From Cetorhinus maximus (Eukaryota): DNA of 64,000 nucleotides. A program made the translations under genes and the position numbers. This document shows, one piece after another, positions 2,941-60,856 of this stretch. Position 1 is the stretch's first letter; each line of letters begins with the position of its first letter. The notes below the pieces were generated by a model. It was not told the DNA's origin, did no database searches, and worked only from the letters and a program-made list of their open reading frames with translations. The stretch spans positions 22,382,001 to 22,446,000 of the forward strand of contig NC_135901.1 in assembly GCF_964194155.1 (NCBI RefSeq), in the 5' to 3' direction.

Positions 2941-5018
2941 GATATTAGAACGGGTTTTACAGGCAGGAGGCTCATACGGAACACCACAGCATGATCTGAC
3001 AGAGTCACTCGATTCATCAGGACCTGAAGATCATCAGCCTTTCAATGTGGATGGAGAAATGTTTGTCTGTTCTGCCTGTGGGGAAATGTTTCAATCATCA
3101 GTATGACTGGAAAATCACCAAGACATGCACACCTGAGTGAGAGTGTTCCAGTGTACTGACTGTGGAAAGAGCTTTAGTTACACAGCCTGAATAAAGATCA
3201 CACCATTCACAGTGGGGAGAAACCATACACATGTTCTGTGTGTGGACGAGGCTTCAACTGATTGTCCAATCTGAAGAGACACAAGGACACCGGCACCATG
3301 GAGAAACCATGGAACTGGGAGGAATGTGGTAAAGGATTCAATTCTTCATCCAGGCTGGAAATTCATCAATGCATTCACAATGGGGAAAAGCCATTCAGTT
3401 GTTCCGTGTGTGGGATGGGATTCACTCGGTCATCCGGCCTTCGGTCACACCAGCGAGTTCACACTGAGAAGAAGCCATTCAGCTGCACAACCTGTGGAGA
3501 GGGGTTCAAGTCTTCATCCATCCTCACTGAACACCAGCGGATTGACACGGGTGGGAAACCATTCACTTGCTTCGTGTGTGGGAGTTGTTGCAAGGATATG
3601 CTTTTGCTTCAGTGACTGGAAGCCAGTGTCCTGTGGCGTACCACAGGGATCTGTGCTGCGACCCTTATTATTTGTCATTTATATAAACGATATAGATGAC
3701 TATGTGGGGGGTAGGATTAGTAAGTTTGTGGATGACACAAAGATTGGCCGGGTAGTTAACAGTGAGGTTGAATGTCTTGGGCTACAGGAAGATATAGATG
3801 GGATGGTGAAATGGGCAGATAAGTGGCAGATGGAATTTAACCCTGACAAGTGTGAGGTGATACACTTTGGAAGGAGTAATTTGACAAGGAAGTATTCAAT
3901 GAACGGCATGACACTAGGGAGTTCTGAGGCGTATGTGTCCATAGATGTCTGAAGGTGGAGGGGCATGTTAGTGGGGTGGTGAAAAAGGCATATGGGACAC
4001 TTGCCTTTATCAATCGAGGCATAGATTACAAAAGTAGGGAGGTCATGTTGGAGTTGTATAGAACCTTGGTGAGGCCACAGCTGGAGTACTGTGTGCAGTT
4101 CTGGTCACCACATTATAGGAAGGATGTGATTGCACTGGAGGGGGTGCAGAGGAGATTCACCAGGATGTTGCCTGGGATGAAACATTTAAGTTATGAAGGG
4201 AGGTTGGATAGACTTGGGTTGTTTTCGTTGGAGCAGAGAAGACTGAGGGGCGACCTGATCGAGGTGTACAAGATTATGAGGGGCATGGACAGGGTGGATA
4301 GGAAGCAGCTATTCCATTTAGTTGAAGGGTCAGTCATGAGGGGACATAAGTTCAAGGTGAGGGGCAGGAGGTTTAGTGGGGAATGAGAGGAAAAACATTT
4401 TTACCCAGAGGGTGATGACTGTCTGGAATGCACTGCCTGGGAGGGTGGTGGAGGCGGGTTGCCTCACATCCTTTAAAGAGCACTTGGCACATCATAACAT
4501 TCAAGACGATGGGCCAAGTGCTGGTAAATGGGATTAGGTAGGTAGGTCAGGTGTTTCTCACGTGTCGGTGCAGACTCGATGGGCCGAAAGGCCTCTTCCG
4601 TACTGTGTGATTCTGTGGGGGAAGGGATTCACTGGTGTATTCGCCCTCCAGTAACACCACCGAATGCACATGAAGGAGAAGCCATTCAGCTGTACTGCTG
4701 CGTCAGCTGCAGAAAGAGTTTCAGGCAGTCAACCGACCTCAGTGAACACCAACGTACTCACACTGCGGAGAAGCCATTCACCTACTCCATGTGTGGAAGG
4801 GATTTCCTTGGTCATCCCAACTGCTGACACATCAGCGAGTTCACATTGGGGACAGACTGTTCACCTGCTCCTTGTGTGGGAAGGGATTCCCTTGGTTATC
4901 CCAACTGCTGACACATCAGCGAGTTCACACCGGGGACAGACCGTTCACCTGCTCCTTGTGTGTGTCGGGATTCACTCAGTCACAACACCTACTGAGATAC
5001 GAGCGGGTTCACCTGTGA
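2941..5018 (+). pseudogene. C2H2 ZNF pseudogene (MEKPW type) disrupted by a CR1 insertion and frameshifts
   Basis: Acceptor ttttccag at 2933-2940; leader; accATGg at 3298; fingers to CFVCG at 3583; resumes GKGF at about 4617; family 3' UTR after 5018. Confidence 0.85.
3605..4616 (+). mobile_element. 5'-truncated CR1 LINE inserted inside a zinc finger
   Basis: RT motifs GVPQGSVL, FVDDTK, WQMEFNPDKC, LEGVQRRFTRM; CR1 tail gatgggccgaaaggcc...tgtgattctgtg. Confidence 0.9.
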
Positions 5019-5705
5019 TTACAGGGGTTGGATTCTGCTGTTTTTCTTGCTGTTAATCACACCCAGGATCGATAGTCTGACAATAATTGGTTTGTTTCTG
5101 CTGATGTTAACCAAACTGTAACTGGCTAAAGTTTAATATTCTGGAAATGTCACTGATTTTCAGGGCTGCATTGTCCCTTTTTAAAAGCTTCATCTGTGAT
5201 CTTTCCCCTTAGTACGAGAACTCTCAATAGGAGCTAATTTACAATAAAATTCTGAACTTTTACTTCAATCTTAAATTGATCTTTGATGCAAACTCTACAG
5301 TTCAGTGTTTGAAAGGTTCCACTGATTAACATCTCCAATTAGAAAGTGCTGATTAACCCTTGCTGACAATTCTTACTGACTTCCACATTCTTCACAGTGA
5401 CACCTCCATTATGAAGTTAAATTATGAATGAACAGCAATTAAAATGGTGAAATATTTTACAGGCAGATCAATAAAAGCTTCATCAATCAACATTGATATT
5501 GATGAAGTTTGGAAGTCGCTGATTCAATCATTTCTGACACAGCAGCAGCAACATTTGGTAAAGGTGGAACCCACACAAAGACTGGTTTGAGACCGACTCA
5601 GCAGAGATGACATCTGTCATTGAAGCAAAAAGCAAAGCCCACCTGATGCACAACATAAAGCCAACAGCCAAATACTGTGTGCAGTTCTGGTCACCATATG
5701 AATTT

Positions 5706-6003
5706 AAGGGGAGGTGGTGGAGTGGTATTGTCACTGGACTCGTGTTCCAGAGACCCAGGGTAATGGGGATGCGGGTTTGAATCCCACCATGGCAGATGGT
5801 GGAATTTGAATTCAAATATCTGGAATTAGAAGTCCAATGATGACCATGAAACCATTGTCATAAAAACCCATCTGGTTCACTGATGCCCTTTAGGAAAGGA
5901 AATCTGTCATCCTCACTTGGTCTGGCCTACATATGACTCCAGACCCATAGCAACTCTTAAAAATGCTCTCTAACAAGGGCAATTAGGGATTGGCAATAAA
6001 TGC
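5706..6003 (+). mobile_element. tRNA-derived SINE (same family as 1526-1882)
   Basis: ggtggagtggtattgtcactggact...gggtttgaatccc head; aaaacccatctggttcac body; ggcaattagggattggcaataaatgc tail. Confidence 0.75.
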
Positions 6004-6029
6004 ATGGGTTTATATGTCATGAGAACGCA

Positions 6030-6432
6030 CACACCAAACAAACTGGGTCTCTTTTCTTTTGAAATAAGACGTGTGAGGGCTGAGCTAATCATTTAAAACG
6101 ATGAAAGGTTTTGATAGAGAGGATACAGGGAGAATGTTTACTCTTGTGGAGAAAAGCGTAACTAGACACCATCAATATAAGATTGTCACCAAGAATCCAA
6201 TAGGGAATTCAGAAGAAACTTCTTCACCCACAGATGGAGTGAGTGAAGTGAATAGTATCAAAGTACTTATGGGGAGGCTGGACAAACATATGAGGGAGAA
6301 GGGGATATTGGGTTACGGTGATAAATTTGGAAGTGGAAAGATGGGAGGAGGCTCGAGTGGAACATAAACACCGAAATGGACTGGATGGGCCGAATGGTCT
6401 GTTTCTGTGCTGTATGTCAATGTAATCCTATC
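6030..6432 (+). mobile_element. Old CR1 3' fragment
   Basis: MKGFDRED..MFTLV remnant; tail gatgggccgaatggtctgtttctgtgctgta. Confidence 0.65.
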
Positions 6433-6433
6433 T

Positions 6434-7630
6434 AAGGCTTCAACTGATTGTCCAACCTGGAGAGACACAAGGACACCCACAACAGGGAGAAACCATGGAA
6501 ATGCGGGGACTGTGGGAAGGGATTCAGCTCTCCATCCCAGCTGGAAACTCATTGGCTCAGTCACACTGGGGAGAGACTGTTCCCCTGCACCATGTGGAGG
6601 AAGGGATTCACCGAATCATCCAGCTTCCAGAAACGCCAGCACACTCACAGAGGAGAAACTGTGAAACTTACACTGTGTGTGGGAAGAGATTCACTCAGTC
6701 ACCCATTCTCCAGATACAGTCTGTAAGAATTCTGTTCTTTCTTTGTCTGTGTATTTATATAGTCTGTCAGAGTTGTGTTCTTTCTTTGCCTGTGTGTTGA
6801 TCTGCAGGGTAGAGTCTGTGGGGGTGATGTCATGCTTTGAACCGGCTTGTCCTAGTTTGGAACTGAGAGATGGTGGAAGTGCAGAAGTTCTATGTAATCA
6901 CAGAGGAATGTGTGTGCTCTCAACAACAGGCGAACGCTGTTCAGATGAACACACCTGTGATTGGACAAGAGCCACATAATTGTGTAGTGAAATGTACATG
7001 GACAGTTCTGATTGGTGGCCTCAGGGGAGCCAGTTGGGTGGGGGGTGGTGGGGGTTTCCAGCATAAAAACAGTCCTCTCAAGGGGTTTGATGCAGTGGAG
7101 AAAAGAACAAAGGGAAGAAGACAAAGAAATAAGAAAAAAGCCAGAAAGCTGGAAACTCCACACGAAAACCAGAAGCTACGGGGAAAGAAGTGCGCTCTGC
7201 TATCCAGATACGACATGGGAAGTATAGAGCTCACATTATTCTGTTATCACTGCTTGAACTTTACCTTTAGTCCAGAAGTTTGTCCTGCCTTTCTCTTAAT
7301 AAAGCTGCTCCATAACTGAACTTTATTGTCACATCCGATCCTGTTGTAAGTAAGGAGTTCAATCCCTACAACCCGCAAGTTCACATCAAGGAGATTCTGT
7401 CCATATGCTCCATTTGTAGGAAAGGATTCACTTGTGTGTCCAGCCTCACTGCCCATCAAGTTGTTCACTCTGATAAGAGACCTTTTAATTGTTATCATTG
7501 TGTGAAGAGTTTTAAAAGCTCTAAAGATCTGATGAAATACCAACTCACTCACACTGAAGAGAACCCATTCACCTGCACTGACTGTGGGAAGAAATTCACT
7601 ACTCACTCAACCTGCGGACACACCAATCAC
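6434..7630 (+). pseudogene. C2H2 ZNF pseudogene split by a solo LTR
   Basis: [14 protein letters not shown] fingers 6484-6717, resuming HPQVH...HSDKRPFNCYHC at 7371; frameshifts. Confidence 0.8.
6722..7370 (+). mobile_element. Putative solo LTR (about 649 bp)
   Basis: Begins TGTAAG, ends CTACA; CATAAAA near 7062; AATAAA at 7298-7303; interrupts a finger; TSD unclear. Confidence 0.6.
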
Positions 7631-7684
7631 CCTGCCAATGGAAACAATTTCTACCAATGTAAATGAAAACTCCTAAAAAATAAT

Positions 7685-10237: not shown

Positions 10238-10948
10238 TCACTGTAGAAACTTGTGAACTTGCTGGTGCTTTAGCAGCGTGAATGAAGTTGTGAATCCTTT
10301 CCCACACTCAGAGCAGGTGTATGGCCTCTCCCCGGTGTGAATTCGCTGGTGATTCAGCAGGGTGGATAACTGAGTGAATCCCTTCCTACATTCCATGCAG
10401 GTGAATGGCCTCTCCCCAGTGTGAATTCGCTGGTGCACAGTGAGCTGTTCTGATCGCCTGAATCCAGTCCCACAATGAGAGCACCTGAATGGTCTCTCCT
10501 CAGTATGAACACGTTGATGGGACATCAGTTCCCCAGAACTTTTAAAGCACTTCTCGCAGTCCGGGCATTTGAAAGGTCTCTCCTCAGTGTGAACTCGCTG
10601 GTGTGTCAGCAGGTGGGATGACTGAGTGAATCCCTTCCCACACTCGGAGCAGGTAAATGGCCTCGCCCCAGTGTGATCTCGCTGGTGTTTCAGCAGGCTG
10701 GATGACTGAGTGAATCCCTTCCCACACATATAGCAGGTGAACGGCCTCTCCCCAGTGTGACTGCGTCGATGAGTTTCCAGGTCAGACGGGTAATTGAATC
10801 TCTTCCCACAATCCCCACATTTCCACGGTTTCTCCCCAGTGTGACTGCGCTTGTGTCTTGACAGGCCAGATGATTGTCTGAAGCCTCGTCCACACACAGA
10901 ACACGTGTACTGTTTCTCCGCGATGTGAACGGTGCTCTTTCCTTTCAT
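10238..10948 (-). CDS. C2H2 zinc-finger protein, 8 fingers, no effector domain (about 236 aa, MKGKSTVH type)
   Basis: Open ORF with TGERPF linkers; aacATG at 10948; family 3' UTR with AATAAA at 10119-10124. Confidence 0.85.
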
Positions 10949-12310: not shown

Positions 12311-12314
12311 TTAG

Positions 12315-14324: not shown

Positions 14325-14600
14325 ATCGCTCCCTCCGCGCCCTCCCCCCCCCCCTCCCCCCTCCCTCCCCTCGCCCCTTTACCGATTGCGGATCCGAGAA
14401 AGAAGCATCGCTCACTCTCGCCATTACCCTCACTGCGCATGCTTCTATCACAAGACGAGCCCCGCCCCACATTCACTCCGATTCGTTGGAAGACCGCACC
14501 AGCTCGGTCCTCCTGCCCCGCCCCTAGTTTCTATTGGTCCAGAGCAGCCGTCAATCACCCGGGCATTATGACGGTTTCAAACGCTGAGGGCGGCCACGGA
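14325..14600. promoter_or_regulatory. CpG-rich promoter-like region (GC box, CCAAT-type, NRF1-like)
   Basis: actgcgcatgc, gccccgcccc, ctattgg; paralogous to 28755-28870. Confidence 0.5.
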
Positions 14601-14700
14601 CTCAGCCTGACTTGCTGATTCTTGGCAGCATTTTCTGTTTGAGAATTAGAGCTAGAGATGGATGGTCAGTTCCCCTCTGTCCCCGGGGGGATTCACACTC

Positions 14701-14907
14701 ATTTCCCCAGTGCAGTGATTATCACGTTTACTTTACATGAGAAAGTCCCCGGTTCAATCCCGTCTCTGAAGAAGTCATAGGACACGAAACGTAAACTCTC
14801 ATTCTCTCCCCACAGATACTGTTAGACCTGCTGAGTTTTTCCTTCGTTTTCTGTTTCAGATTTCCAGCATCCGCAGTATTTTGCTTTTATCAATCCCGGC
14901 TGGAAGC
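14701..14907 (+). pseudogene. tRNA-Val(TAC)-like relic interrupted by a Penelope-derived short repeat
   Basis: atttccccagtgcagtgattatcacgtttactttacatgagaaagtccccggttcaatcccg...gctggaagc resembles vertebrate tRNA-Val; insert 14763-14889 flanked by tcaatcccg twice. Confidence 0.7.
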
Positions 14908-18734: not shown

Positions 18735-18985
18735 GAATTTCTATCCTGGACTGACGGTGATGATTTCTGTAAACTTACAGGGTACTGGAAGTGAAGGATT
18801 GACAAACAGGAAATTCAAACCAAACATCACATCAAGATCTGACAGAGGCACTCACGTCATCAGAACCTGAATATCAGCAGCATCTGAATGTGGAAGGTAA
18901 AAGGTTTGTTCCCTCTGTGGGAGAAGATGTCAGGTATCAATGTGACTGGAAAAGCACTGAGACACACAAACCCTGGTGAGAGCAC
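18735..18985 (+). pseudogene. Truncated ZNF acceptor/leader module
   Basis: aaacttacag|ggtactggaag...caaaccaaacatcacatcaagatctgacagag...gtgactggaaaagcac. Confidence 0.65.
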
Positions 18986-23227: not shown

Positions 23228-23818
23228 TCAAATGTGAAACTTCTGGTGTCTCTTCAGGTTAGATGAAAAAGTGAATCTCTTCCTACAGACAGGGCAGTTG
23301 AAAGGCCTCTCCCCAGTGTGAACTCGTTGGTGTCTGTGCAGGTTATGCGTCCGAGTGAATCTCTTCCCACACACACAACAGGTGAATAGCCTCTCCCCAG
23401 TGTGAACTTGCTGGTGTTTCAGCAAATTTATTGGTCCTTTGAAACTCGTCTCACAGTCAGAGCATTTAAACAATCTCTGATCACTGTGAACAAGTTGATG
23501 TGTCAGCAGAGCAGATGACTGAGTGAAGCCTTTCCCACACACAGAGCAGGTGAACGGCCTCTCCCCAGTGTGAACCCGCTGGTGGGTCCCCAGGTTAGAT
23601 GAGCTCATGAAAATCTTCCCGCGTACGGAACAGCTGAACGGCCTCACCCCACTGTGAACACGCTGGTGTGTCAGACGATTTGATAACTGCGTGAAACCCT
23701 TCCCACAATCTATGCAGGCGAACGGCCTCTCCCCAGTGTGAATACGCCGATGAATTTCCAGCTGGGATGGGGAAATGAATCCAGCTCCACAGTCGCCACA
23801 TTTCCACGGTTTCTCCGT
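23228..23818 (-). CDS. C2H2 ZNF array, 7 repeats (1 degenerate); family ATG replaced by ACG, so status is uncertain
   Basis: Open frame [11 protein letters not shown]...HQKFHI*; acceptor near 24167; convergent with the 20954 gene. Confidence 0.6.
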   Translation of the reverse strand, partial: TEKPWKCGDCGAGFISPSQLEIHRRIHTGERPFACIDCGKGFTQLSNRLTHQRVHSGVRPFSCSVRGKIFMSSSNLGTHQRVHTGERPFTCSVCGKGFTQSSALLTHQLVHSDQRLFKCSDCETSFKGPINLLKHQQVHTGERLFTCCVCGKRFTRTHNLHRHQRVHTGERPFNCPVCRKRFTFSSNLKRHQKFHI

Positions 23819-24499
23819 GGTGCGGGTCTCCTTGTGTCTCTCCAGGTTGGATCCTTGTCCAAACACACAGACACATGTACGGCTTCTCCCCACTGTAAAT
23901 GCTGTAATTTTTTCAGGTTGCGTAACTAGCTAAAGCTCTTTGCATAGTCAGTGCACTGGAACACTCTCACCGGTGTGAGTGTGTCTCGGTGCTTTTCCAG
24001 TCATATAGATGAGTGATTTTTTTTTTCTACAGTCAGAATAGGCAAATATTTCTCCTTCCACATTCAAAGGCTGATAATATTCAGCTCCTGTTGAATCAAG
24101 TGACTGTTAGATCTTGATGTGATGTTTTGTTTGAGTTACCAGTCTATAAATTCTCCCTTCTGATGCCCTGTAAGCAGAGGTTTCAAAAGTCCTCATTGTA
24201 AAGCACAGCATAGAAATTCAGAACAGTTAATTTTAGTTTCAAAGAAACATTTTTTCCTCTCTTGTTCCCCCAAAGCTGTAAATCCCCGTCCCACACACTC
24301 TCCCTCCTCCCTGGGCTGAAATTCAAATAAAGTGTTGGATAATTCTCTGTATCCTTTTAATAAATTCTACAACTGGAGATTATGTTTTTCAAGGGGCCAT
24401 TTGTGAACAGTTTCCCAAACACAGATCAGATTCCTCATTGATTTGAGCCCAAAGTGTAACCTCTTATTTATTGTCCCCCCTCCCCCATCCTCTGATGTG

Positions 24500-25080
24500 A
24501 ACCATCCTCCACTCGCTGACCCAGGATGGCGGCCGTTAACCTGGGCCTGTTCCCAGGAGGGAGAAGCTCCGCAGCTGCAAACCAGGAGCTGACAATTATT
24601 CCTCAGGGTTTGCGGATCCACAAAGTGTTTCCAAATCCTCCCCGTCCAGCCGCCGGCTCCATCGCTCCCTCCCCCCGGGCCTGTCACCGCGGGATAAACA
24701 CGGGGCCTGGGGCCTGAGGCCTACCCCAGAAATTGATCCAGTTCACAGTCCAGCCGCGGTTTCCATTCCTACCCTGTGCTCACAATCTCCTCCCGCTTCC
24801 CGAGAACCGTCCGCTCCTCCTCACTCTATCACCATGACTGACACTGAGCATGCTCAGAGCGCACACCCACACTGCACCTGCGCACTGGGGGGGCTAAACC
24901 ATCCGCCGTCATCTTGGCAGAGGAAGGCGAGTCTTGTTGAGGGAGCGGGCACATGGGTGGCCATCTTGGTGAGGGAAGGGCTGAGTGAGGACGGGGCTTC
25001 CTCCCCGGTGACAGGCCTGGGTTACCCGGGCAACCGGCCGCCGCCATCTTGTGCTGAGGGTTTTACATCCGGGTCTTTAG
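24500..25080. promoter_or_regulatory. CpG-rich promoter with YY1-like motifs in both orientations
   Basis: gatggcggcc near 24525; gtcatcttg, gccatcttg and gccgccatcttg near 24908, 24960 and 25040; gagcatgctc; paralogous to 34490-35050. Confidence 0.55.
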
Positions 25081-25199
25081 TGAAGGAATGGACCATGAGC
25101 TGGAGCTCAGTTTTCAAGCTGGTCTGAGGAAGGTCTGAAATCAGATTTACATTCAGATATCTGTAAGGGCAATAAAGTTTACATTATGTTTTTAAAACG

Positions 25200-25365
25200 A
25201 AATCAGAATGCTGGAAATACTCAGTTCTGAAGAAGAATCATGTTGGATTGGAAATGTTAACTCTGTTTCTCTCTCTTCACTGAAGCTGCCAAACCTGCTG
25301 AGGATTTCCATAAATTTCTGTTTTTATTTCAGATTTCCAGCACCCGTAGTATTTTGTTTTTATTA
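25200..25365 (+). repeat. Penelope terminal-repeat-derived short repeat with hammerhead-like core
   Basis: agtt-CTGAAGA-agaatcatgttggattg-GAAA-tg-tt-aact at 25223-25262. Confidence 0.6.
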
Positions 25366-27701: not shown

Positions 27702-28648
27702 TCACTGTTGTAACTTGTGAACTTGCTGGTGTCTCAGCAGGGTGGAGGAGTGAATGAATCCCTTCCCGTACATGGAACAGATTAACGGCCTCTCCCCATT
27801 GTGAATTTGTTGATGTTTCTGTAGGTAGGATGAATGAGTGAATCCCTTCCCACACCTGGAGCAGGTCAATGGCCTGTCCCTATTGTGAAAGCGTTAGTGT
27901 CTCAGTGGGTCTGATGAATGAGTGAATGCTTTCCCACACTCAGAGCAGGTAAGGGCCGCTCCCCAGTGCGAATTTATTGATGTTTATGCAGGTCGGTTGA
28001 ACAAGTGAATCCTTTCTCACACTTGGAGCAGGTAAACGGCCTCTCTCCAATGCACCCACTGAGATCTCACCAGGTTAGTTGAATTAATGAATCCCTTACC
28101 ACACTCGGAGCAGGTGAATGGCCTCTCCCCAGTGTGAATGCACTGGTGTGTCAACAGGGTGGATAACTGAGTAAATCTTTTCCACACACTGAACAGATGA
28201 ATGCTCTCTCCCCAGTGTGACAGCGTCAATGAATTTCCAGCTCAGATGGAGATCTGAATTTCTTCCCACAGTACCCGCATTTCCACGGTTTCTCCATGGT
28301 GTCAGTGTCCTTGTGTTTCTTCAGATTGGACAATCAGTTGCAGCCTCATTCACACAAACATGTGTACAGCTTCTCCCCAATGTGAATGGTGTGATTTTTT
28401 TTCAGTGTGTAACTGGTTAAAGTTCTTTCCAGTCAGTTCACACTCTCACTCAGGAGTGTGTGAATGTCTTGCTGTTTTTCCAGTCACACTAATGTTTGAA
28501 ATGTTCTCTCACAGACAGAACAAACACTTTTCCTTCCACATTCAAAGGCTGATAATATTCAGGTCCTGATGAATCGAGTGACTCTGTCAGGTCTCAGTTT
28601 GATGTTTGTTATGATTTTCCCATCTGTAAATCCTCCCCTTCTAACTCC
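27702..28648 (-). pseudogene. C2H2 ZNF pseudogene (MEKPW type) with several frameshifts
   Basis: Leader module; accATGg at 28297; finger remnants in shifting frames; family 3' UTR. Confidence 0.8.
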
Positions 28649-28739
28649 CTGTAAAAAGAGTTTAGAAAACTCTTCACTTTAAATGCAGGATGGAAATTCT
28701 GAAGAAGCCTTCCAGCTCCAGCACCCGTACAACGCATCC

Positions 28740-29130
28740 TTCAGTCACAGCCCAGCCCCGCCCCTCATTTGTTCCGATTGGTTGGAGGGCCATTCCCGCT
28801 CGGTCCTCCAGGCCCGCCCCTCTTCCTATTGGTCTGGCTCTGCCGTCAATCAGCCGGGCATTGTGAGGTGCCAGGTGAGAGGTCACTGTCGGGAGCGGGT
28901 TAATAAACCCAGGGCGGGGGGGCGGGGTTTACAAATCCCGAGTGCGGCCCCAGAGCCGAATATTAAACAATGAACATTCTCCACTCTCACTATCCGCCGC
29001 TTCCGGCTTCTCTCCGGGAACAACCTCAAACAAAGAGACCAGGACCCTCCAAGCATGCGCGATCCATCCGGCCAACCCGCGGCAAGTAGAGCGGTTTCGT
29101 CTCAGCACGGGATTGTGGGTAACCAGGCTG
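28740..29130. promoter_or_regulatory. CpG-rich promoter (GC boxes, CCAAT, NRF1-like, ZNF143-like)
   Basis: gattgg and tattgg; ggggcgggg; gcatgcgc near 29053; gggattgtgggtaa near 29110. Confidence 0.5.
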
Positions 29131-29499
29131 CCATTAGCAACAGGGTCTCAGTTAATCTCTGTCTCAATCTGGGCACCTGAGGGTGAGGTTCTGCTGACGT
29201 AGGGATTGTAAAATAAAAAATATCAATGTCTTTCTCCTAGCATCCGCATCCTGCAATCTTGGCAATGAACCTGTTTCATTAGGTCTGTAAAAGAGGTGAG
29301 GGTGCAGGAGACAGGGGAAAAGGAGAGCACTTCAAAAGGAACTAACTTGTGTTAGAGATATTAAAAAAGACTCAAAAGACTGTGTTTAACAAAAGCTGAT
29401 TTATTTGAGTTTTATCCAGAATATTACCTATTGTTGGGCTTGAGTTTATTAACATCAGCAGAAATAGGTCGGAGTTCAGTCTTGGATGTGACAATCACA

Positions 29500-33699: not shown

Positions 33700-34480
33700 G
33701 CCCAAGGTAACTTAGGCAGGGACATATTTGCATTGGAGGCATTCAGAAAATTTTCATGAGGCTGATTCCTGGGATGAGGGGGTTTGTCTTATGAGGAAAG
33801 GTTGAACAAGTTGGGTCTGTAGTCATTGGAGTTTAGGAGAATGAGAGGTGATCTTACTGAAATATGTAAGATTCTGAGGGGGCTTGACAGGATGGATCAA
33901 AAAGGTTGCTTCCACTCATGGGGGAATCTAGAACCAACGGGCACAGTTAAAAAGTAAGGGTTCTCCACGTTTGCGGGTCTCGGTTTCTTTTCCCTGGGAA
34001 CAGGCCCAGCCGTGAGCTTGGTTCAGTGGGGACTGGAGCGCATGCGCGGCCATCTCGGTGATGAAACAGACAGTAGGCGGGGCCTCAGGGCCCCGGTGAC
34101 CAGGAGAGAAAATTATTGACTCGTTTATTTTATTGTCATTCTGCACACAAGGGGTGGTGACAGGCCCAGGTTAACGGTCACCATGTCATCAACATCTAGG
34201 ATGAGGAGAAATTTCTTCTGAGGGTTGTCAGTCTCTGGAAATATTTTCCCCACAGTGAGCAGTGGAGGCTGTTCATTGAACATATTCAATCCTGATTTAA
34301 ACAGATTTCTGATCTACAAGTGAGTCAACGGTTATATGAGGCTGGGTGGGTTGGGAGGTGAGAGGCATACAAGAAAGTGGAGTTAAGGCCACAGTCTGAT
34401 CGACCGTGATCTTATTGAATGGCAGAGCATGCTCGATGGAACAAATGGCCGACTGCGAATTCTGATGTTCTTATTCTTAT
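33700..34480 (+). mobile_element. CR1 3' fragment interrupted by an inverted promoter copy
   Basis: cttatgaggaaaggttgaac...ggaatctagaacc; resumes gatgaggagaaatttc near 34200. Confidence 0.7.
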
Positions 34481-34732
34481 GTTGTTAGGCCGGCCGTGCA
34501 TTAACCCCCTGAAGATGGCAACCGTTAACCTGGGTCTCTCACCACCCCTTGTGTGCAGAATGACAATAAAATAAACGAGTCAATAATTTTCTCTCCTGGT
34601 CACTGGGACCCTGAGACCCCGCCTACTCTGTTTCATCACAGAGAAGGCCGCGCATGCGCTCCAGTCCCCGCTGAACCAAGCTCACGGCTGGTCCTGTTCC
34701 CGGGAAAAAGAAACCCAGACCCGCAAACGTGG
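33965..34732. repeat. Inverted repeat with arms of about 220 bp (33965-34184 and 34515-34732)
   Basis: Arms are reverse complements; ORF track shows MQNDNKINESIIFSPGH on both strands. Confidence 0.9.
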
Positions 34733-35050
34733 GACTTGCAGGGCCTTACTCGGGCCCTGCGGCCTACACCGGGTGTTTACGAAGCCTCCCCGCTCCTCAG
34801 CTCCTGGCTCCATTCCTCCCCTTCCTTCCCACCCCGACTCACCAGCTCCATTCCTCCCCTCGCTTACCCGACCTGATCCGCCCACTCTCACCCATTTCCA
34901 ATTGCGTCAGTCACCCTCGCACGGCTTTGAGCAAAGTGACACTGCGCATGCTCCTGGATGTCCAGCACTGCACCTGCGCACTGGACTCCTGTAGAGTGAA
35001 TAGGGCACGTTCACAGCCGCAGGGAATGTGGGTGACAGCAGCGCCATTGG
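34490..35050 (-). promoter_or_regulatory. CpG-rich promoter probably serving the minus-strand 30854 gene
   Basis: aagatggc (YY1), gcgcatgcgc and actgcgcatgc (NRF1), gggaatgtgggt (ZNF143-like). Confidence 0.5.
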
Positions 35051-35554
35051 AACTTCGAAATGCACAACAGAAAATAATATTGTTACGCAATAGAGATAAA
35101 ATAATAAAAACAAATTCCTGTAAATCTTCGCGCTGCCCTGTTCCATACCCAAAGTGTCTTAAACGGCTGCTCTCCTGTGGGAAAATGCTGAGCTTTTAAA
35201 GCTTTTCCCACTGGCTCCCCTTTCACTCCTCCCCAGAAACTGCTGATTCTGGCTGGGTTCAAACCCACTGGTTCCTCTCTCTTACTCGGCCAATCCCCAG
35301 ATACTGAACATTTACTGTTTTATAGAATGATGCAGCACAGATGGAAACCATTCGGTCCATCATACCTGTGCTGGATGTTTGGAAGATCTAGCCAATTAAT
35401 TCCACAGACCTATTGGCACTGTCACATCCATGTATATCTGCTGTAATAATGCAGCAGGTGAATGGAAAAGACTTTCCAGGTGGATGCTTCTCAGACACAC
35501 ACCCCTGTGGAAAGATCGATTGACCAGTGTACTGGGCAGCTATTAAGGGTTCAC

Positions 35555-42320: not shown

Positions 42321-43148
42321 CTAGTGTCCCACCAAATGGGATGAATGGACGGATCCCTTCCCACACTCGGTGCCAGTGAACAGCCTCTCCCCAGTGTGTG
42401 TACGTTCGTGTGCCAGCAATTTACACCTGCTTTCAAAGCTCTTCTCGCAGTCAGAACATCTAAAAGGTCTCTGATCAGTGTGACCCAGTTGGTGTGCCTT
42501 GAGCAGGGATAATCGGGAGAATCTATTGCCACACATGGAGCAGGTGAACGGCTTCTCCCCAGTATGAACTCGCTGGTGTATCAAAAAGTCGGATGAATGA
42601 ATGAATCCCTTCCCACACTCGGAGCAGGTGAATGGCCTCTCCCCAGTGTGAATGCGTTGGTGTGTCAGCAACTGGGACCTGCTTTTAAAGCTCTTCTCAC
42701 AGTCAGAACATTTAAAAGGTCTCTTGTCTGTGTGAACCAGTTGGTGAGAAGTGAGGTGGGATGACCGAGAGAATCCCTTCCCACACTCAGAGCAGGTGAA
42801 TGGCCTTTCTCCAGTGTGAACTCTCTGGTGGGCCAGCAGGTGGGCTGACTGAGTGAATCCCTTCCCACAGGCGGAGCAGGTGAATGGCCTCTCTCCAGTG
42901 TGAACTCGCTGGTGTGTCCGAAGGTCTGATGAATTAATGAATCCCTTCCCACACATGGAGCATGTGAATGGCCTCTCCTCAGTGTGAGTGAGTTTGTGTC
43001 TCAGAAGGTCGGATGACCGAGTGAATCCCTTCCCACACAAGGAGCAGGGGAATGGTCTCTCCCCAGTGTGAATGTGTCGATGAGTTTCCAGCCGCGATTG
43101 GTATTTGAATCCTTTCCCACAGTCACCACATTTCCATGGTTTCTCCAT
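42321..43148 (-). CDS. C2H2 zinc-finger protein, 9 intact fingers plus a degenerate tenth, about 275 aa, MEKPW type
   Basis: accATGg at 43148; open ORF; acceptor near 43455; family 3' UTR with AATAAA at 42173-42178. Confidence 0.85.
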
Positions 43149-43479
43149 GGTGCTGGTGTCCTTCTGTCTCTCCAACTTGGAAGATTAGTTGAAGCCTCGT
43201 CCACACACACAACACTTGTACATTTTCTCCTCGCTGTGAATGGTGTGATTCTTTTCAGGAACACTCTCACTCGGGTGTGTGCGTCTTGCTGCTTTTCCAG
43301 TCACACTGATGTGTGAAATCTCTTCACATGGACAAACGTTTCTCCTTCCATGTTCAGAGACCAATGATATTCAGGTCCTGATGAATCGAGTGACTCTGTC
43401 AGATCTTGATAATTGGTTTTAGTTTCCCATCTGTAAATCTTCCCCTCCTAACACCCTGTAAAAAAAAGTTTACATCGAA

Positions 43480-45855: not shown

Positions 45856-46449
45856 AAAAATGATTTAAAATAGAAAAGGGGAGTAAGAGAGAACCCATTA
45901 AAACATAAAGGCAAGGTGTGAACTTGAGCTGAATGAATCTGGTAATTTGTGAGGCCGGCACTAGGAAAAAGTGACCATGAAAACTGCTGGATTGTCGTAA
46001 AACTCCAACTGGTTCACTAATGTCCTTCAGGGAAGGGAACCTACCATCGAGTTACCCTACACAAGACTCTTGGGAAGATTGAGAGAAAGGGAGAGAGGGA
46101 GTGGTGAAGGAGAGGGATTTTATATTTCTACAACTAAGCTAGAAGTTTCCCACAGTTACCACATTTATACAGTTTCTCCCCGGTGTGACTGCGCTTGTGG
46201 CTCGACAAGCTAGATTATTGGCAGAATTCTCATCCACAGAAAGCACATATGTACAATTTCTCCCTGTTGTAAACGCAGCTTTTTCCTCCCAGGTTCAAAA
46301 TTATATGATATTCAGATTAGGATAATCTGCCAGTCTGAACCTACACAAGGCCCTGGCCTCGCTAGGGGGAGGGAGACAGAGAGGGGGGTAGATTTTATGT
46401 ATCATCAACCTGATCAGAACTTTGACAAAACCTTCTAAACCCTCAACCT

Positions 46450-46900
46450 CTACCACCTAAAAGTAAATCCTTCCCTTCTCACCCCCTGCAAAAGGAGTTT
46501 CGAAAATCCATCCCTCAGATAGAAATTCACAACACTCTCTCCTCCTGCTGACAGGGGCAGGGATGACTGCGCATGCGCCCTGCAGTACATTGCTCCCTAT
46601 AAAGATGGCGACCCTTAACGCGCGCCTGTCATCAGGTTCAGCCCCGCGGCTGCTGCCCCGCATGGACTAAATGCGGGATTGGTAGATTCTTAATTTTGTT
46701 CCCAGGCATCCACTGGATGTTTATGAGGCCTTCTCGCCCATTTTGCCTCCTCCATTACCCACCTATAATCAGCCGCTGTTCACCGGTTGCGGAGTCGAGA
46801 TGACCGCCTCACAGTCGCTCCAGCACATAGAGTGCGCACGCACCCACGGGAACTAAATGCGCATGCGCAACCCACGCCTGCACCATGATTTCCTATGGTG
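46450..46900 (-). promoter_or_regulatory. CpG-rich promoter plus acceptor module (inverted paralog of 52200-52730)
   Basis: gcgcatgcgc twice; aagatggcg (YY1). Confidence 0.55.
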
Positions 46901-49960: not shown

Positions 49961-49983
49961 AGAGAGAGAGAGAGAGAGAGAGA
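49961..49983 (+). repeat. (AG)n microsatellite
   Basis: Directly visible. Confidence 0.9.
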
Positions 49984-52199: not shown

Positions 52200-52600
52200 T
52201 ACCCAGCATTCGCGGCGGGGCAGAACGTGCCCTATCCTCGCTGCAGGAGCTTCTTGCGCAGGCGCACTACCGGGTGTGACTCGAGCATGCGCTTTGCGGG
52301 CGCTGAGTACAGCATGCGCAGTCGAGGCCGCACCAGGAACTGGTCGAAGCTGTTCACAAATATCGAGTCCAGGCGAGTAAATGAAGCCGGTGGATGGGGA
52401 GGATTAAAGACGGCAGAGTGGGTGGGGAGGCTTGATAAATACCCACTGGCTGCCTCAACGTCGGAATAAGGAGCTAGAGCTCCCGAGGTCGCAGCGAACG
52501 GGAAGGTAGCTGCGGGCCGCGGTTCTCAGTCACAGGCCGCAGTTAACGGCCACCATCTTTACAGGGGGGGGCGAAAGTGCAACAGAGCGCATGCGCGGTC
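52200..52600 (+). promoter_or_regulatory. CpG-island-like promoter of the 53220 ZNF gene
   Basis: Several gcatgcgc/gcgcaggcgc (NRF1-like); ccaccatcttt (YY1-like); high CpG. Confidence 0.6.
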
Positions 52601-52739
52601 ATCACTGTCCCTATCAGCAGGAGGAGAGAATGTTGTGCATTTCTATCCTGGACTGACAGGGATGGATTTTGGAAACTCCTTTTACAGCGGGTTAGAAAGG
52701 GAAGATTTACACACAGCAAACTCAAACTCCTCTGACATA

Positions 52740-53070
52740 GGTCTTTAAAATTCTGATTGAGTTGGACAGATAGATGTGGACAGAATGTTTACACTTCTTG
52801 TTCGTAATAAATCCAAGAGGAAAACGGGAGATATTTCCGTCCTCAGACAGTTGTTAGAATGTGGAACTCTACTACAGGAAGTGGTTGAGACAAATCCCTT
52901 AGATGCTTTCAAAAGTAAACTAGATGAGAACAAGAGAAGAAAGGGATTCGAAAGATAAACTGAAAGGCTGAAATGAGGTCGGCAGAATGGAGGAGACTCC
53001 TGTGGAGTAGAAACTCCAAGACAGACTAGATAGACCAATTAGCCTGTTTATGTAATGTATGTTCCATGTA
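52740..53070 (+). mobile_element. Old CR1 3' fragment
   Basis: gatgtggacagaatgtttacactt..gatgctttcaaaagtaaactagat. Confidence 0.55.
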
Positions 53071-53285
53071 ATTCTTTGTAAACTTATTTTACAGAAAAAA
53101 GAAGAGGAAGATTTGCAGTCAGGAAAAGTAAATCAAACTTTACATCAAAATCTGACAGTCTCTCAATTCATCTGGATCTGAAGATTTGTATATCTGAAGG
53201 ATTTAATTGACCGTCTCAGTTGGAAACCAGTGAGAGGCTGTTCACCTGCTCCTCCTGTGTGAAGGGATTGATACAGCTGGTTAAC

Positions 53286-55049
53286 ATGCTGACACGACAG
53301 CGAGCTCACAACAGTGAGAGGCTGTTCACCTGCTCCGTGTGTGGGAAGAAATTCATGTGTTCATCCAACCTGCTGGCACACCAGCTCAATCACATTGATG
53401 AGGAGCCTCTTCAATGCTCTGACTCTGGGAAAAGCCTTGAAACCTCTGAGGAACTGGTCCAACACCAGCAAGTTCACACTGATGAGAGACCATTCAGCTG
53501 CTCCCACTGCGGGAAGAGGTTCAGGCTGTCCTCCCGCCTCGCGGAGCACCAGCTCCTTCACACACACGAGAGGCCGTTCAGCTGCTCTCACTGTGGGGAG
53601 TCGTTCAGCGAGTCAGTGCATCTCACTGAGCACCAGCAAGTTCACACCAAGGACAGGCCGTTCAGCTGCTCCCAGTGTGGGAAGAGATTTGCTCAGTCCT
53701 CCCATTACACTGAGCACCAATTGGTTCACTCCGATAAGAGACCTTTTAAATGCTCAGAGTGTGAGAAGACCTTTAAAAGACACAGTGAACTGTTGAGACA
53801 CCAGCGGACTCACACCAGCGACAGGCCATTCACTTGCTCTGTGTGTGGGGAGAGCTTCACCCATTCAGTCCAACTTCTGAAGCACGAGGGTGTTCACAAT
53901 GGGGAGAGACCCTTCATCTGCTCCGTGTGTGGGAATGGATTCACTCGGTCATCCAACCTTCTGGCACACCAACGGGTTCACACCGGGGAGAGGCCGTTCA
54001 CCTGCTCTGACTGTGGGAAGACATTTACTCGATCATTCCACCTTCTGACACACCAGCGAATTCACACAGGGGAGAGACCGTTCACCTGCTCTGAGTGCGG
54101 GCAGGGATTCACACGGTCATCCCACCTGGTGAGACACCAGCGAGGTCACACTGGGGAGAGGCTGTTCATCTATTCCGCATATGACAAGAGAGTTCCTGAA
54201 TCCTCCCAATACACTGAACACCAACGTGTTCACTCTGATAAGAGAACTTTTAAATGTTCTGAATGTGAGAAGACCTTTACAAGAAGCAATGACCTGCTGA
54301 GACACCAGCATATTCACACTGGGGAGAGGCCATTCCTCTGCTCTGAGTGTGGGAAGACATTTGCGCATTCATCTGATCTGGTGAAACACCAGCGTACTCA
54401 CTCTGGGGAGAGGTCATTCCTCTGCGCCGAGTGTGGGAAGAGATTCATTCGGTCATCTGATCTAGTGAGACACCAACGCACTCACACTGGGGAGAGGCCA
54501 TTCACCTGCTCTGAGTGTGGGAAGGGATTCACTCTGTTAGCCAACCTGCTGAGACACCAGCGAGTTCACAGTGGGGAGAGGACGTTCCTCTGCTCTGAGT
54601 GTGGGAAGAGATTCACTCAGTCATCCCACCTGCTGAGACACCAGCGCATTCATACCGAGGAGAGACCTTTTAAATGCTCTGACTGCGGGAAGTGCTATAA
54701 AACCTCTGGAGAACTGATGTACCATCAACGCGTTCACACTGAGAAAAGACCGTTCAGGTGCTCTCACTGCAGGACTGGGTTCAGGAAGTCATCTCAACTC
54801 ACTTTACACCAGCGAATTCACACTGGGGAGAGGCCGTTCACGTGCTCCGATTGTGGGAAGGGATTTGCTCACTCAGGCACCCTGCTGACACACCAGCGAA
54901 TTCACACTGGGGAGAGGCCGTTCACCTGCTCCGAGTGTGGGAAGGGATTTACTTGTTCACACCACCTACTGAGACACCAGCGAGTTCATAGGTCACCGGC
55001 AAAGTTGGATTTTCTTGATTTTGCTGCTGAGAATTACCTCCAGGACTGA
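53286..55049 (+). CDS. Large C2H2 zinc-finger protein (21 finger repeats in the open frame from 53220, 3 degenerate), extended C-terminus
   Basis: Uninterrupted frame 53220-55049; first ATG at 53286; acceptor ttttacag ending 53094; in-frame TGA at 53208. Confidence 0.85.
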   Translation: MLTRQRAHNSERLFTCSVCGKKFMCSSNLLAHQLNHIDEEPLQCSDSGKSLETSEELVQHQQVHTDERPFSCSHCGKRFRLSSRLAEHQLLHTHERPFSCSHCGESFSESVHLTEHQQVHTKDRPFSCSQCGKRFAQSSHYTEHQLVHSDKRPFKCSECEKTFKRHSELLRHQRTHTSDRPFTCSVCGESFTHSVQLLKHEGVHNGERPFICSVCGNGFTRSSNLLAHQRVHTGERPFTCSDCGKTFTRSFHLLTHQRIHTGERPFTCSECGQGFTRSSHLVRHQRGHTGERLFIYSAYDKRVPESSQYTEHQRVHSDKRTFKCSECEKTFTRSNDLLRHQHIHTGERPFLCSECGKTFAHSSDLVKHQRTHSGERSFLCAECGKRFIRSSDLVRHQRTHTGERPFTCSECGKGFTLLANLLRHQRVHSGERTFLCSECGKRFTQSSHLLRHQRIHTEERPFKCSDCGKCYKTSGELMYHQRVHTEKRPFRCSHCRTGFRKSSQLTLHQRIHTGERPFTCSDCGKGFAHSGTLLTHQRIHTGERPFTCSECGKGFTCSHHLLRHQRVHRSPAKLDFLDFAAENYLQD

Positions 55050-56535: not shown

Positions 56536-56544
56536 ATACATATG

Positions 56545-57635
56545 AATCAGAATCACAGTGCAGAAGAGGCCCTACAACCCGTTGACTCTGCACCGACACG
56601 TGAGAAACACCTGATCTACCTATCTAATCCTATTTACCAGCACTTGCCCCATAGCCTTGAATGTTATGACGTACCAAGTGCTCATGCAGGTACTTTTTAA
56701 AGGATGTGATGCAACCCGCCTCCACCACCCTCCCAGGCAGTGCATTCCAGACCGTCACCACCCTCTGGGTAAAAAAGCTTTTCCTCACATCCCCCCTAAA
56801 CCTCCTGCCCCTCACCTTGAACTTATGACCCCTTGTGACTGACCCATCAACTAAGGGGAACAGATGCTCCCTATCTACCTGTCCATGCCCCTCATAATCT
56901 TGTCCATCTGAATCAGGTCGCTCCTCAGACTTCTCTGCTCCAACGAAAACAACCCAAGTCTATCCAACCTCTTTTCATAACTTAAATGTTTCATCCCAGG
57001 CAACATCCTGGTGAATCTCCTCTGCACCCACTCCGGTGCAATCACATCCTTCCTATAATGTGGCGACCAGAACTGCACACAGTACTCCAGCTGTGGCCTC
57101 CTTGTTAAATTACTCCTTCCAAAGTATTTCACCTCACACTTTTCAGGGTTAAATTCCATCTGCTACTTATCTGCCCATCCCGTCTGTATCTTCCTGTGGC
57201 CCAAGACACTCAACCTCACTGTTAATCACCCGGCCCATCTTTGTGTCATCCGCAAACTTACTAACCTTACCCCCCACGTATTCATCTATGTCGTTTCTAT
57301 AAATTACGAATAATAGGGGACCCAGCACGGATCCCTGTGGTACGACACTGGCTTCCAGTCACGAAAGCAACCTTCTGTCATCATCCTCTGTCTCCTACAA
57401 CTAAGCCAATGTTGAATCCACCTTATCAAATTACCCTGTATCCCGTGTGCATTTGCCTTCTTTATAAGTGTCCCATGTGGGACCTTGTCAAAGGCTTTAC
57501 TGAAATCTATATAAACTACATAAACTGCACTACCCTCATCTACGCACCTGGTCATCTCCTCAATAAGTTTAATCAAATCTGTTAGGCATGACTTCCCTCT
57601 GACAAAGCCATGCTGACTGTCCCTGATCAAATCTT
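56545..57635 (-). mobile_element. CR1 LINE 3' part (same subfamily as 3605-4616)
   Basis: SQHGFVRGKSCLT, DFSKAFDKVPH, EFNPEKCEV; tail matching 4500-4616. Confidence 0.85.
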
Positions 57636-57999
57636 GCCTGATTAGGTGTTGATTACTATTTGAAGCTTAACTAGTGTGAGTCATCTCAGCTCACCTCAGC
57701 TCTATTTCAGAAAGGGACTATTAGAAGCACACGAGCAGGGGAGAGACCTCATCCTGAGTGAGACACAGCCAGAGTGAGTGTGGGTCTTGGCAATTTGCTG
57801 CACAGTGGGAATTGAACTGGTAAGTCTTTCTCTTTAATTTCTCTGAGTTCAGTAGTCTAGTTAAAAGGTTGCTCAGGTAGCTGACTCACCTGACTGTGTG
57901 ACAGTTAACTGTCAATCACCTGAAGCCTGATTAGGGCCTGAATAGGTGTTGATTACTATTTGAAGCTATATTCAAGACATTACTGCAGTCGATCCTCTC

Positions 58000-58770
58000 T
58001 GATTATCACCAGACTTGACCATGTCTCTATTTATATTGTACATGACCCTGTTATTTGTGCCCTTGATGCTGTCTCAGTTACAAACTAGACCATGTTTCTG
58101 TTTATGTTTCATTAGACCCTGTCTCAGTTATTTGACCATGTCTCTAATTATATCTACCTGTAGTACACAAGGCCCTGTATTAGTAACATTACTAACAATT
58201 CGAAAGTACTTAATTAGGTATAAAGTGTTTTGACACATTTGGTGATCATGAAATGAGCTATATAAATGCAAATATTTCTTAATATTATTTTGAACTGTAC
58301 TAGACCTTGTCCTGGTTTATAGTACACTACTGATTACTACACTGGACCCTGTCCCTGTTTATAATGCACTCGGCCCTGTTTTGCTTTTAACTTACCTTGA
58401 CCATGGCTCAGTTATTGCCACATAAGGCCAGCCCACTATTTGCACTACACTAGGCCCTGTCAAAGCAGCTACTGCAGTCGACTGTGCCACTGTAATTTGG
58501 GCCCTCTGTCTGTTACATTACAGTGGGCCATATCACAATATATCTTAGTTATTATTGCACTAGAGTCAGACCATGTCTTGCTTAATATTCCACTAGGCAC
58601 CATCCTTTTCATTACTGCACTAGATCAGGTCTTGGTTTATTTTACTGCTCCTGCTGTATCAGTAATCACTGCACTGGACCCTGTCTCAGTTGAGATTAAC
58701 CTGGGCTCTGTCTCAGTCATCCCTCCACTAGACCCTTTCTCAGTTTATATTAACCCAGACCCTGTATCAA
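58000..58770 (+). repeat. Decayed tandem repeat (approximate unit cactagaccctgtctcagttatta)
   Basis: Recurrent gaccctgt/gaccatgt and tctcagtt words. Confidence 0.55.
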
Positions 58771-58889
58771 TAATCAATTGCAGGGTTATGGAGAAAAGGC
58801 GGGAGAGTGTGATCAACTAAGTGATGCTAGAAGATAAGACCGGCCAATTGTCCTCCTTCTCTGTTGGAACCATTGTTTGATTCTTATAC

Positions 58890-59225
58890 TAATGGCAGGC
58901 GCAGTTCCCACAATCCCCCGCGCCCCAGAAACCACTCTATCCAACTCGCTCCTTTCCCCAGGCGCTGAGAGTGCGCATGCTCCCCAGGACCACCCGCGGG
59001 GCATTCTGGGCAGCTCCTTTGTTGTGAGTCGGACCCGGTGGAAACGGGAGAAGAAACCGGGAAGCGGCGGCGAGGATGGGGGAGGCGCTGCAGCATCGCT
59101 TTAATGGGCAGCCCCGACCCCCAGTCCCCCAGCCCGGGGAGACCACCGCCGGGCCCGGCCGCTCTCATTCGGCCTTAGAGAGCCGCACTCGCTGTTCTTG
59201 AGGCTGCGCTCGCCTCCCGCTCAGT
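58890..59225 (+). promoter_or_regulatory. CpG-island-like promoter of the 60014 ZNF gene with two ZNF143(SBS)-like and one NRF1-like site
   Basis: ttcccacaatcccccgcg 58905-58922; reverse complement tgcccagaatgccccgcg 58995-59012; gtgcgcatgc 58971-58980. Confidence 0.6.
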
Positions 59226-60013
59226 TTCTCCATTGAATCCTGTTTCTCTCCTTGTTTTTCCCAACTCAGATTCACCGCCTCATTTTCTTTTCTTCCTCTG
59301 AGCCCCTGAACTCCATCAGACAGGGTCATGTTGGAGAGCGGGCATTGACTGTCCTGGGAAACAACAGCAAGAGGAGCTCAGAGGCCGGAGGAGCAAAGGG
59401 AGCAATGAATTCAGTCACCAATCGCGGGGGATTGAGGACTGGACCCTGAGTCAGTCAGTCAGAAGAGTCAGAGTGAACCCCTGGGGAATCATTCATCTCT
59501 GAAAAATTAAATGAGTATCTCTTTAATCAACAACACAATTTAATATTTATCAGTTCATTTTTTTTTATTCTTTGTTATCTCAAACCCAGGACATCGCTGC
59601 AGGAATTCCTCAGGTCAGTATCCTGGGCCCAACCATCTTCAGCTGCTTTATCAATAACCTTTTTTCCATCATAAGTCAGACTTGGGAATATATTGCCGTT
59701 CCTTCATTGTCGCTGGGTCGAAATCCTGGAACTCCCTTCCTAACAGCGCCGACACCACATGGACTACAGCAGTTTAAGGAAGTGAACAGGAAGATTTGCT
59801 GACAGGAAACTCAAACCAAAAATCACGTCAAAATCTGACAGATTCACTCAATACATCAGGCGCTGGATATCATTGAACCTTCAATGTAGAAGGAGAAATG
59901 TTTTAACCAACTGTACAGCCTGAAAAAACTTTTAATCATTCACAGCGGGGATAAATTGTGTACGAGGTTTGGACTGACCATCCAACATGGACAGCAACAA
60001 GGACAACGGCACC

Positions 60014-60856
60014 ATGGAGAAACCATGGAAATGTGGGGACTGTGGGAAGGGATTTGGTTCCCCATCAAAGCTGGAAATTCATCAACGCAGCCACACTGGG
60101 GAGAGGCCGTTTACCTGCTCCATGTGTGGGAAGGGATTCACTAGTTCATCCAACCTTCTGAGACACCAGCACATTCACACTGAGCAGAGTTCAGTCATCT
60201 GCTCCGTGTGTGGGAAGGCAATCGGTCATTCATCAAACTTTCTGAGGCACCAGCAAACTCACAGTGGAGAGAGGCCGTTCACCTGCTCCGTGTGTGGGAA
60301 GGGATTCACTCAGTCATCCTACCTACTGACGCACCAGCGCATTCACACAAGGGAGAGTCCGTTCATCTGTTCCTTGTGTGGAGAGGGATTTAATCGATTA
60401 TCCAGACTTCTGAATCACCAGAGAATTCATACTGGGGAAAGTCCATACACCTGCTTTATCTGTGGGAAGGGATTTAATCGGCCATCCAAACTACTGACAC
60501 ACCAGCGAATTCATACTGGGGAGAGGCCATTCACCTGCTCCATGTGTGGGAAGGGATACACCAATTCGTCTGACCTGTTGACACATCAGCGAGTTCACAC
60601 TGGCGAGAGGCCATTCACATGTTCCATGTGTGGAAAGGGTTTCATTCGGTCATCCCACCTTCTGACACATCAACTTGTTCATACTGATCAGAGACCTTTT
60701 AAATGTTCTGAGTGTGAGAAGACATTTAAAAGTAAAAAGGATCTGCTGACACACCAACGAGTTCACACTGGGGAGAGGCCGTTCACCTGCTCCGTGTGTG
60801 GGAAGGGATTCACTCAGTCATCCACCCTGCTGACACATCAGCGAGTTCACAAGTAA
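60014..60856 (+). CDS. C2H2 zinc-finger protein, 10 fingers, MEKPW type (alternative in-frame ATG at 59987)
   Basis: accATGg at 60014; open ORF; leader at 59785-59900; family 3' UTR. Confidence 0.85.

Follow-up and report, generated by a model that had tools for sequence, protein, structure and literature searches.

Likely start codons in a former finger linker, downstream of three dead fingers, in a shark-type zinc-finger gene family of Cetorhinus maximus

How could a gene family come to begin translation inside the linker between two zinc fingers, shortly behind a stop codon that itself lies in a decayed finger? This question is raised by a stretch of 64,000 nucleotides of Cetorhinus maximus (contig NC_135901.1, positions 22,382,001 to 22,446,000 of the forward strand; hereafter the window, numbered from its first letter), whose two strands together bear about a dozen arrays of C2H2 fingers. 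A sequence-only reading had reported that in some of these the TGEKP linker reads T-M-EKP, and this was confirmed: the linker ATG, in the context accATGg, is found at 3298(+), 28297(-), 43148(-), and 60014(+), and an in-frame stop precedes each of them by exactly 39 nt (TGA 3259-3261, TGA 28334-28336, TAA 43185-43187, and TGA 59975-59977). TGA 6445-6447 is likewise in frame, 39 nt before an AGG at 6484, and a second TGA, in the word TGACTGGAAAA, was found five times, at 3104 and 18943 (+) and at 24001-24003, 28484-28486, and 43301-43303 (-). The account that we favor, with a probability of about 0.62, is that one shark-type zinc-finger gene would have lost its first three fingers via two stop codons before amplifying, that translation of the remaining array probably begins at a new start inside the former linker, that the founder most likely carried ACG there, converted to ATG by CpG deamination in most lineages, and that copies without ATG may be read at a low level from the ACG itself or from an in-frame CUG at codon -9 (counted from the linker codon). 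Its core, consisting of the dead fingers, the inherited stops, and the linker start, we regard as largely secure but ordinary in mechanism.

The window sites belong to a single subfamily within a large cluster of shark-type C2H2 genes. A word from the first finger has 1139 exact matches in the 4.0 Gb genome, 469 of them preceded by ATG, and among these 469 sites 116-123 distinct copies were seen. All four window proteins that were scanned are tandem arrays with PF00096 in 5-9 stretches and H/C linkers; KRAB, SCAN, and BTB gave no hit in these four open reading frames (ORFs), FiNZ not being searched as a profile and upstream exons not being mapped. We first collected 151 distinct sites, with sampling aimed at ATG sites, and these fell into three classes with one putative splice acceptor and leader in common: class A has three fossil fingers and the linker start, class B has an upstream start and an intact homologue of fossil finger 3, and class C is without that finger. 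Among the sites collected, the linker ATG was restricted to class A (112/126). Two unclassified sites and a TCT cluster of partial duplicates were left out, and loci L121/L125 and L051 were moved to class B. Single linkage at 93% grouped class A into 55 lineages, of which 22 are broken, which is the picture of a lineage-specific clustered expansion with pseudogenes. The acceptor AG is kept in 42 of 44 intact lineages.

The three fingers upstream of the linker codon are dead and drift neutrally. The majority line of the 55 class A lineages is an open three-finger frame whose only stops are the TGA codons at -66 and -13. Measured from counts against this line, which overcounts shared changes, the ratio of nonsynonymous to synonymous divergence (dN/dS) was 1.04 in the fossil part (confidence interval 0.83-1.33) and 1.05 in the leader before it, compared with 0.69 (0.49-0.94) in the array; three badly aligned broken lineages were excluded from the broken dN/dS set. 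Frame is not respected either, as 71 of 90 insertions and deletions (indels) in intact lineages shift it and the fossil part is frameshifted in 29 of 32 intact lineages. Structural finger residues, compared in 27 intact ATG lineages, are kept at 242 of 319 positions upstream of the start versus 395 of 404 downstream. Zinc ligands are kept at ∼70% in the fossil fingers and ∼100% downstream. Additional stops have arisen by CGA decay at three fossil codons, in a quarter to a third of lineages. The proposal that N-terminal fingers turned non-coding before the family amplified is thus upheld by the majority line, by its dN/dS, and by the indels, and the leader combines finger homology with neutral evolution, as expected of sequence derived from coding domains. 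Some contigs of runs that we guessed to be RNA run unspliced from the fossil fingers across the start, but as contigs of a DNA-like run do the same, they were not used as evidence; in the minority of table rows seen, no readable splice joint was present in the contigs (paralogs) of the runs guessed to be RNA.

Two further features of the leader were observed. At codon -2, where the last His of fossil finger 3 would stand, there is a mixture of CGC, TGC, and CAC; judging from this mixture, the founder likely had Arg there, fossil finger 3 then being already degenerate. Divergence from the majority line is 0.12-0.14 in the leader, below the synonymous value of 0.23 in the array, a difference that might come from shuffling of fingers, from conversion, or from weak constraint on the leader.

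The stops are inherited rather than maintained. A stop is found at -13 in 46 of the 53 lineages that have a codon there, and at -66 in 42 of 47. The prevalence of stops over sense codons at -13, on which the sequence-only reading depended, also holds among genome matches to the fossil helix: by hand count, 85 of the first 100 of 163 matches have a stop (TGA 72, TAA 13, TGG 5, TTA 5, AGG 3, AGA 1, CTA 1), while 11 of the 163 start with a base other than T and none reads CGA. Counted back 13 codons from the G of the TGEKP linker, the -13 stop falls on helix position -1 of the decayed finger. Four independent stops at this spacing would have a chance of ∼5e-6 (stop-triplet frequency 0.048), a figure that does not apply because the window sites are paralogs and their -13 stops one inherited event; the 39-nt spacing is inherited finger geometry rather than a functional distance. 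Nor was the idea of a kept upstream open reading frame (uORF) borne out. The frame at 3059-3106 translates as claimed, but its ATG is kept in 70% of cases, which is the median, uORF sets differ in every lineage, and retention of the two TGA triplets ranks 11 and 16 of 114, like that of other TG-containing triplets. Stops are retained alike in intact (27/32) and broken (18/22) lineages. Of four window copies tested, one has the second TGA in the frame of the start; indels have put it out of frame in the other three.

The stops had further been ascribed, as probable, to CGA>TGA changes. At ten true CpG sites of the leader we counted CG 190, TG 184, and CA 171 of 674, whereas codon -13 reads TGA 57, TGG 4, TAA 3, CGA 2, and CAA 1 of 74. 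The near-absence of CGA and CAA at both stops indicates that the founder had TGA at both places. We therefore rejected recurrent CGA>TGA changes in the amplified copies, the variants at codon -13 being without the CpG-decay pattern; a single CGA>TGA change is plausible and TGG>TGA equally possible. In class B, codon -13 reads CGA 6, CAA 5, CCA 2, and TGA 1 (14 sites), and one horn-shark model has W.

Selective constraint sets in at the linker codon or slightly ahead of it. In 24 of 26 intact ATG lineages no other in-frame ATG comes between the last stop and the linker ATG, and the other two have an ATG at -9. The A at -3 of the linker codon is kept in 43 of 44 intact lineages; the G at +4 was part of the search anchor, and its conservation is hence no test. 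Because a linker written ACC-NNN-GAG supplies A at -3 from the Thr codon and G at +4 from the Glu codon, one codon change would make a strong start. In hundreds of shark-type zinc-finger genes, three dead fingers with an inherited stop precede a likely start of this kind.

We next turn to the origin of the ATG itself. The exact genome sites have ATG 469, ACG 52, ATA 11, and ACA 3 at the start position. All 52 ACG places were fetched and represent 19 lineages, compared with 5 for ATA, 3 for ACA, and at least 95 for ATG (Chao1). At neutral TG sites of the leader, TG>CG was seen 32 times (1.7%) and TG>TA 127 times (6.7%) in 1900, so that the 19:5 ratio of ACG to ATA lineages is the reverse of the neutral 32:127 (Fisher 2e-8, with lineages that are not independent). 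Since ACG exceeds the neutral rate, mere tolerance of ACG is insufficient as a cause, and the ATG/ACG variation suggests that CpG decay affected the start codon and not the stops. From these counts it seems probable that the founder had ACG (T-T-EKP), which decayed to ATG, with ATG copies surviving better. Among 11 matches in horn-shark gene models, the start position is M in 5 and T in 3.

A sixth member of the window, at 23818(-), has ACG in place of ATG and has lost its -13 stop by deletion. Its intact ORF of 196 codons (23228-23818, -) begins accACGg and has its first in-frame ATG at codon 70. Nine of 11 intact ACG lineages are likewise without an in-frame upstream ATG, and 2-11 perfect fingers precede their first Met. 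Nearest relatives were searched for four ACG lineages (window 23818, L194, L197, and L209). The 23818 family has 29 ACG, 1 AGG, and no ATG among its 30 nearest loci, 18 of them full length; the L194 family has 5 ACG, 5 ACA, 6 ATT, and no ATG among 16; L197 gave 8 ACG and 2 ATG of 10, and all seven relatives of L209 have ATG. Before the first ATG, nonsynonymous changes numbered 4/260 versus 14/106 synonymous in the L194 family (dN/dS 0.12), and 13/149 versus 12/58 in intact copies of the 23818 family (p 0.019, dN/dS 0.42; 18/148 versus 13/59 in all 17 copies). These two families appear to be under purifying selection before their first ATG. Such constraint was found in two of the four ACG clusters tested, and gene conversion or splicing could mimic it.

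In all 17 intact ATG-less lineages codon -9 is in frame and open, reading CTG in 14, ATG in 2, and TTG in 1; its context has A at -3 in all 17 and G at +4 in 16. In the window gene it is a CTG at 23843-23845(-), aacCTGg, a candidate near-cognate start. At this codon the 60014 family has changed from CTG to ATG, as has an ATA family. Dozens of intact copies without a linker ATG may thus be read from a weaker, non-standard start, and low-level near-cognate reading would also explain how the truncated founder survived. The stronger version, in which near-cognate starts in strong context saved the truncated gene, ACG turned into ATG many times, and subfamilies including 23818(-) still act as transcription factors with non-AUG starts, is a doubtful extension. 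As a separate observation, in L168, L280-L286, L208, and L302 the -13 stop is gone and an in-frame ATG stands at codon -22/-23; a start there would restore a part of fossil finger 3 to the protein.

Several observations weigh against an ACG founder and weak non-AUG reading. ATG>ACG does occur recently: the nearest relatives of L209 are ATG throughout, and L221 lies within an ATG family. Star-like leader trees cannot root ATG and ACG (parsimony 18 changes versus 19 shuffled), and for the mixed L164 cluster, too, the tree gave no direction of change. One neutral TG site reaches 7.9% CG, and against that rate the ACG excess has p 0.003 with 122 lineages and p 0.23 with 200. The leader contains 2-8 upstream ATGs in 25 of 27 intact ATG lineages with a located acceptor, and these would weaken scanning to any start. 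In the two smaller ACG clusters, nonsynonymous and synonymous changes did not differ significantly (p 0.58 and 0.32), and some pairs differ so little at synonymous sites that gene conversion is suggested. There are intact ACA copies, and ACG is therefore not the sole start. Codon -9 is kept in 21 of 29 ATG lineages (p 0.016 versus 17/17; 20 of 29, p 0.009, after a by-eye correction of L071), but this comparison is post hoc and several of the 17 lineages are related; four of them also have an in-frame ATG at -9, -22, or -23.

Some of these points would be expected if the founder had been ATG already, the ACG, ATA, and ACA copies being later start losses that are intact through youth or gene conversion, with standard initiation only. 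The recent changes in L209 and L221, the majority of ATG, and the pair L228/L200, whose synonymous divergence of 1/49 beside a leader divergence of 15% suggests conversion, are consistent with this. It is nevertheless unlikely given the reversed ACG:ATA ratio, and given that the families of 30 and 16 loci have no ATG donor and yet show dN/dS of 0.42 and 0.12. A splicing explanation, by which an upstream ATG exon is joined at a cryptic AG that lies after codon -13 and before codon 0, so that the linker codon is internal, would accommodate the intact ACA copies as well as the open frame from -9 to 0 in ATG-less lineages, and a branch-point-like CTGAT, containing the TGA, is present in 24 of 44 intact lineages. 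However, a pyrimidine tract is absent, conservation of the three AGs that might serve is 31, 38, and 36 of 44 lineages versus 42 for the main acceptor, several intact ATG lineages have stops or frameshifts in this stretch, and the synonymous ACA is rare (3 exact sites), so that we consider it improbable.

Two other possibilities concern the stops. That selection keeps both stops and the uORF as a device for translational control could be argued from the retention of the stops (46/53 and 42/47) and from upstream ATGs in every leader examined, but the retention ranks, the median uORF ATG, uORF sets that vary by lineage, and the similar retention in intact and broken copies make this a very improbable reading. 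Recoding of the TGA codons (read-through, selenocysteine, or A-to-I editing to TGG), with translation of the upstream fingers, might be suspected because both lie at base-contacting helix positions in an otherwise open majority line and TGG occurs in 4 of 74 lineages. With a dN/dS of 1.04, frameshifts in 29 of 32 intact lineages, and further stops from CGA decay, there is no frame or protein constraint on the upstream fingers; recoding is contradicted for nearly all copies and can be given hardly any credence.

The likeness to known systems is partial. Tetrapod KRAB-ZNFs and cyprinid FiNZ-ZNFs, as treated in the main text of Wells et al. 2023 (PMC10547256), are alike in forming large clusters with birth and death, and the likeness extends to PF00096/PF13465 arrays, TGERP linkers, and a single exon. 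Unlike KRAB-ZNFs, the shark family would have an N-terminus that was shortened and restarted in a linker, and the four window proteins scanned gave no KRAB, SCAN, or BTB hit. The words 'shark', 'cartilaginous', and 'start codon' are absent from that main text, and in the accessible text of the whale shark paper (PMC8455134) C2H2 is named only as an enriched domain. New AUGs arising from ACG by CpG decay are described, in the accessible text of PMC7889888, for uORFs in primate 5′ untranslated regions; the mutational route would be the same here, but would have produced the main start of a gene family from a coding linker. In non-AUG initiation CUG is the most efficient codon, with GUG, ACG, and AUU after it, all far below AUG, according to the accessible text of Kearse and Wilusz 2017 (PMC5666671). 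Compared with known cases, non-AUG reading is here predicted from conservation alone, and would concern whole paralog subfamilies with no AUG alternative. A literature search covering few subscription papers and no supplements found neither the fossil leader nor the linker start described.

The nearest named proteins are shark proteins (3 of 21 rows were left out of one comparison as possibly not independent of the window's genome). Annotated proteins starting MEKPWK (horn shark P0002 and P0017, Mustelus P0121, Chiloscyllium P0126) use the same ATG; they are automatic gene models that are silent on its origin, and several fuse neighbouring genes. A linker start accounts for many such annotations. 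Among the gene models of horn shark, Mustelus, Chiloscyllium, and Scyliorhinus there are both MEKPWK starts and class B starts, and the split between classes A and B is therefore old. Finger linkers come with a Kozak context already in place. Should the ATG-less subfamilies indeed be translated, dozens of genes per genome would be missed or truncated by annotation, and the family would offer dozens of parallel lineages for testing near-cognate initiation as a stepping stone to a new AUG, a replicated natural experiment on the birth of start codons.

Two of the four ATG genes of the window are intact. One is the finger-only ORF of 275 aa at 42321-43148(-), whose leader (43149-43458, -) has its acceptor at 43456-43458, the two stops given above, and TTG at codon -9. 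The other (60014-60856, +) encodes 280 aa in 10 fingers; here the linker ATG is not the first in frame, since the segment 59975-59989(+) contains, after the TGA, an ATG at 59987 (codon -9, aacATGg) that replaces the CTG of the family. The copy at 3298 has a putative 3′ splice site (CAG 2938-2940, use predicted from its sequence) and a leader with three fossil fingers (2938-3297, +), in the first of which the 15-codon uORF (3059-3106, +), conserved no better than neutral sequence, ends at the upstream TGA 3104-3106; the TGA at 3259-3261(+) is helix position -1 of fossil finger 3. Its coding remnant (3298-3615, +) is cut after 105 aa by a retroelement-like insertion, which from its translation we take to be a long interspersed nuclear element (LINE). 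The copy at 28226-28651(-) has its acceptor at 28649-28651, both TGA codons, and the ATG at 28297, and stops after 23 codons. The leader of the ACG gene (23819-24170, -), with its acceptor at 24168-24170 and the upstream TGA at 24001-24003, contains frameshifts in addition to the deletion of the -13 stop. Another broken copy (6445-6726, +) has TGA 6445, CTG 6457, AGG 6484 at the start position, and a remnant of 80 aa, and an orphan leader (18778-18975, +) retains the acceptor and the upstream TGA 18943 with no finger array in the next 600 bases. For comparison, the class B gene at 10238-10948(-) has the same leader, an upstream start, a coding homologue of fossil finger 3, and GGG in the linker.

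The gene at 60014 is a member of a young subfamily (window 59800-60856; L001-L030) with at least 30 copies across C24, the contig on which the window lies, and small contigs. Its leader has deletions of 110 nt and 15-17 nt, and nine copies (L022-L030) have a common stop after 51 codons. Locus L049(-), a class B gene without a linker ATG, has acquired a TGA of its own at helix position -1, at a distance of 39 nt from the first-finger linker that follows, and is an independent repeat of the founding event. An ORF of 612 codons from stop to stop at 53211-55049(+) has ∼19 fingers and the same leader, with a rearranged front end, no linker start, and its first Met inside a degenerate finger. A decayed class B-like copy at 46000-46500(-) has an insertion directly after its acceptor. 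CpG-rich islands near the genes, at 14401-14800, 24801-25200, 28801-29200, 34401-35200, 52401-52800, and 58801-59200, are likely promoters and first exons.

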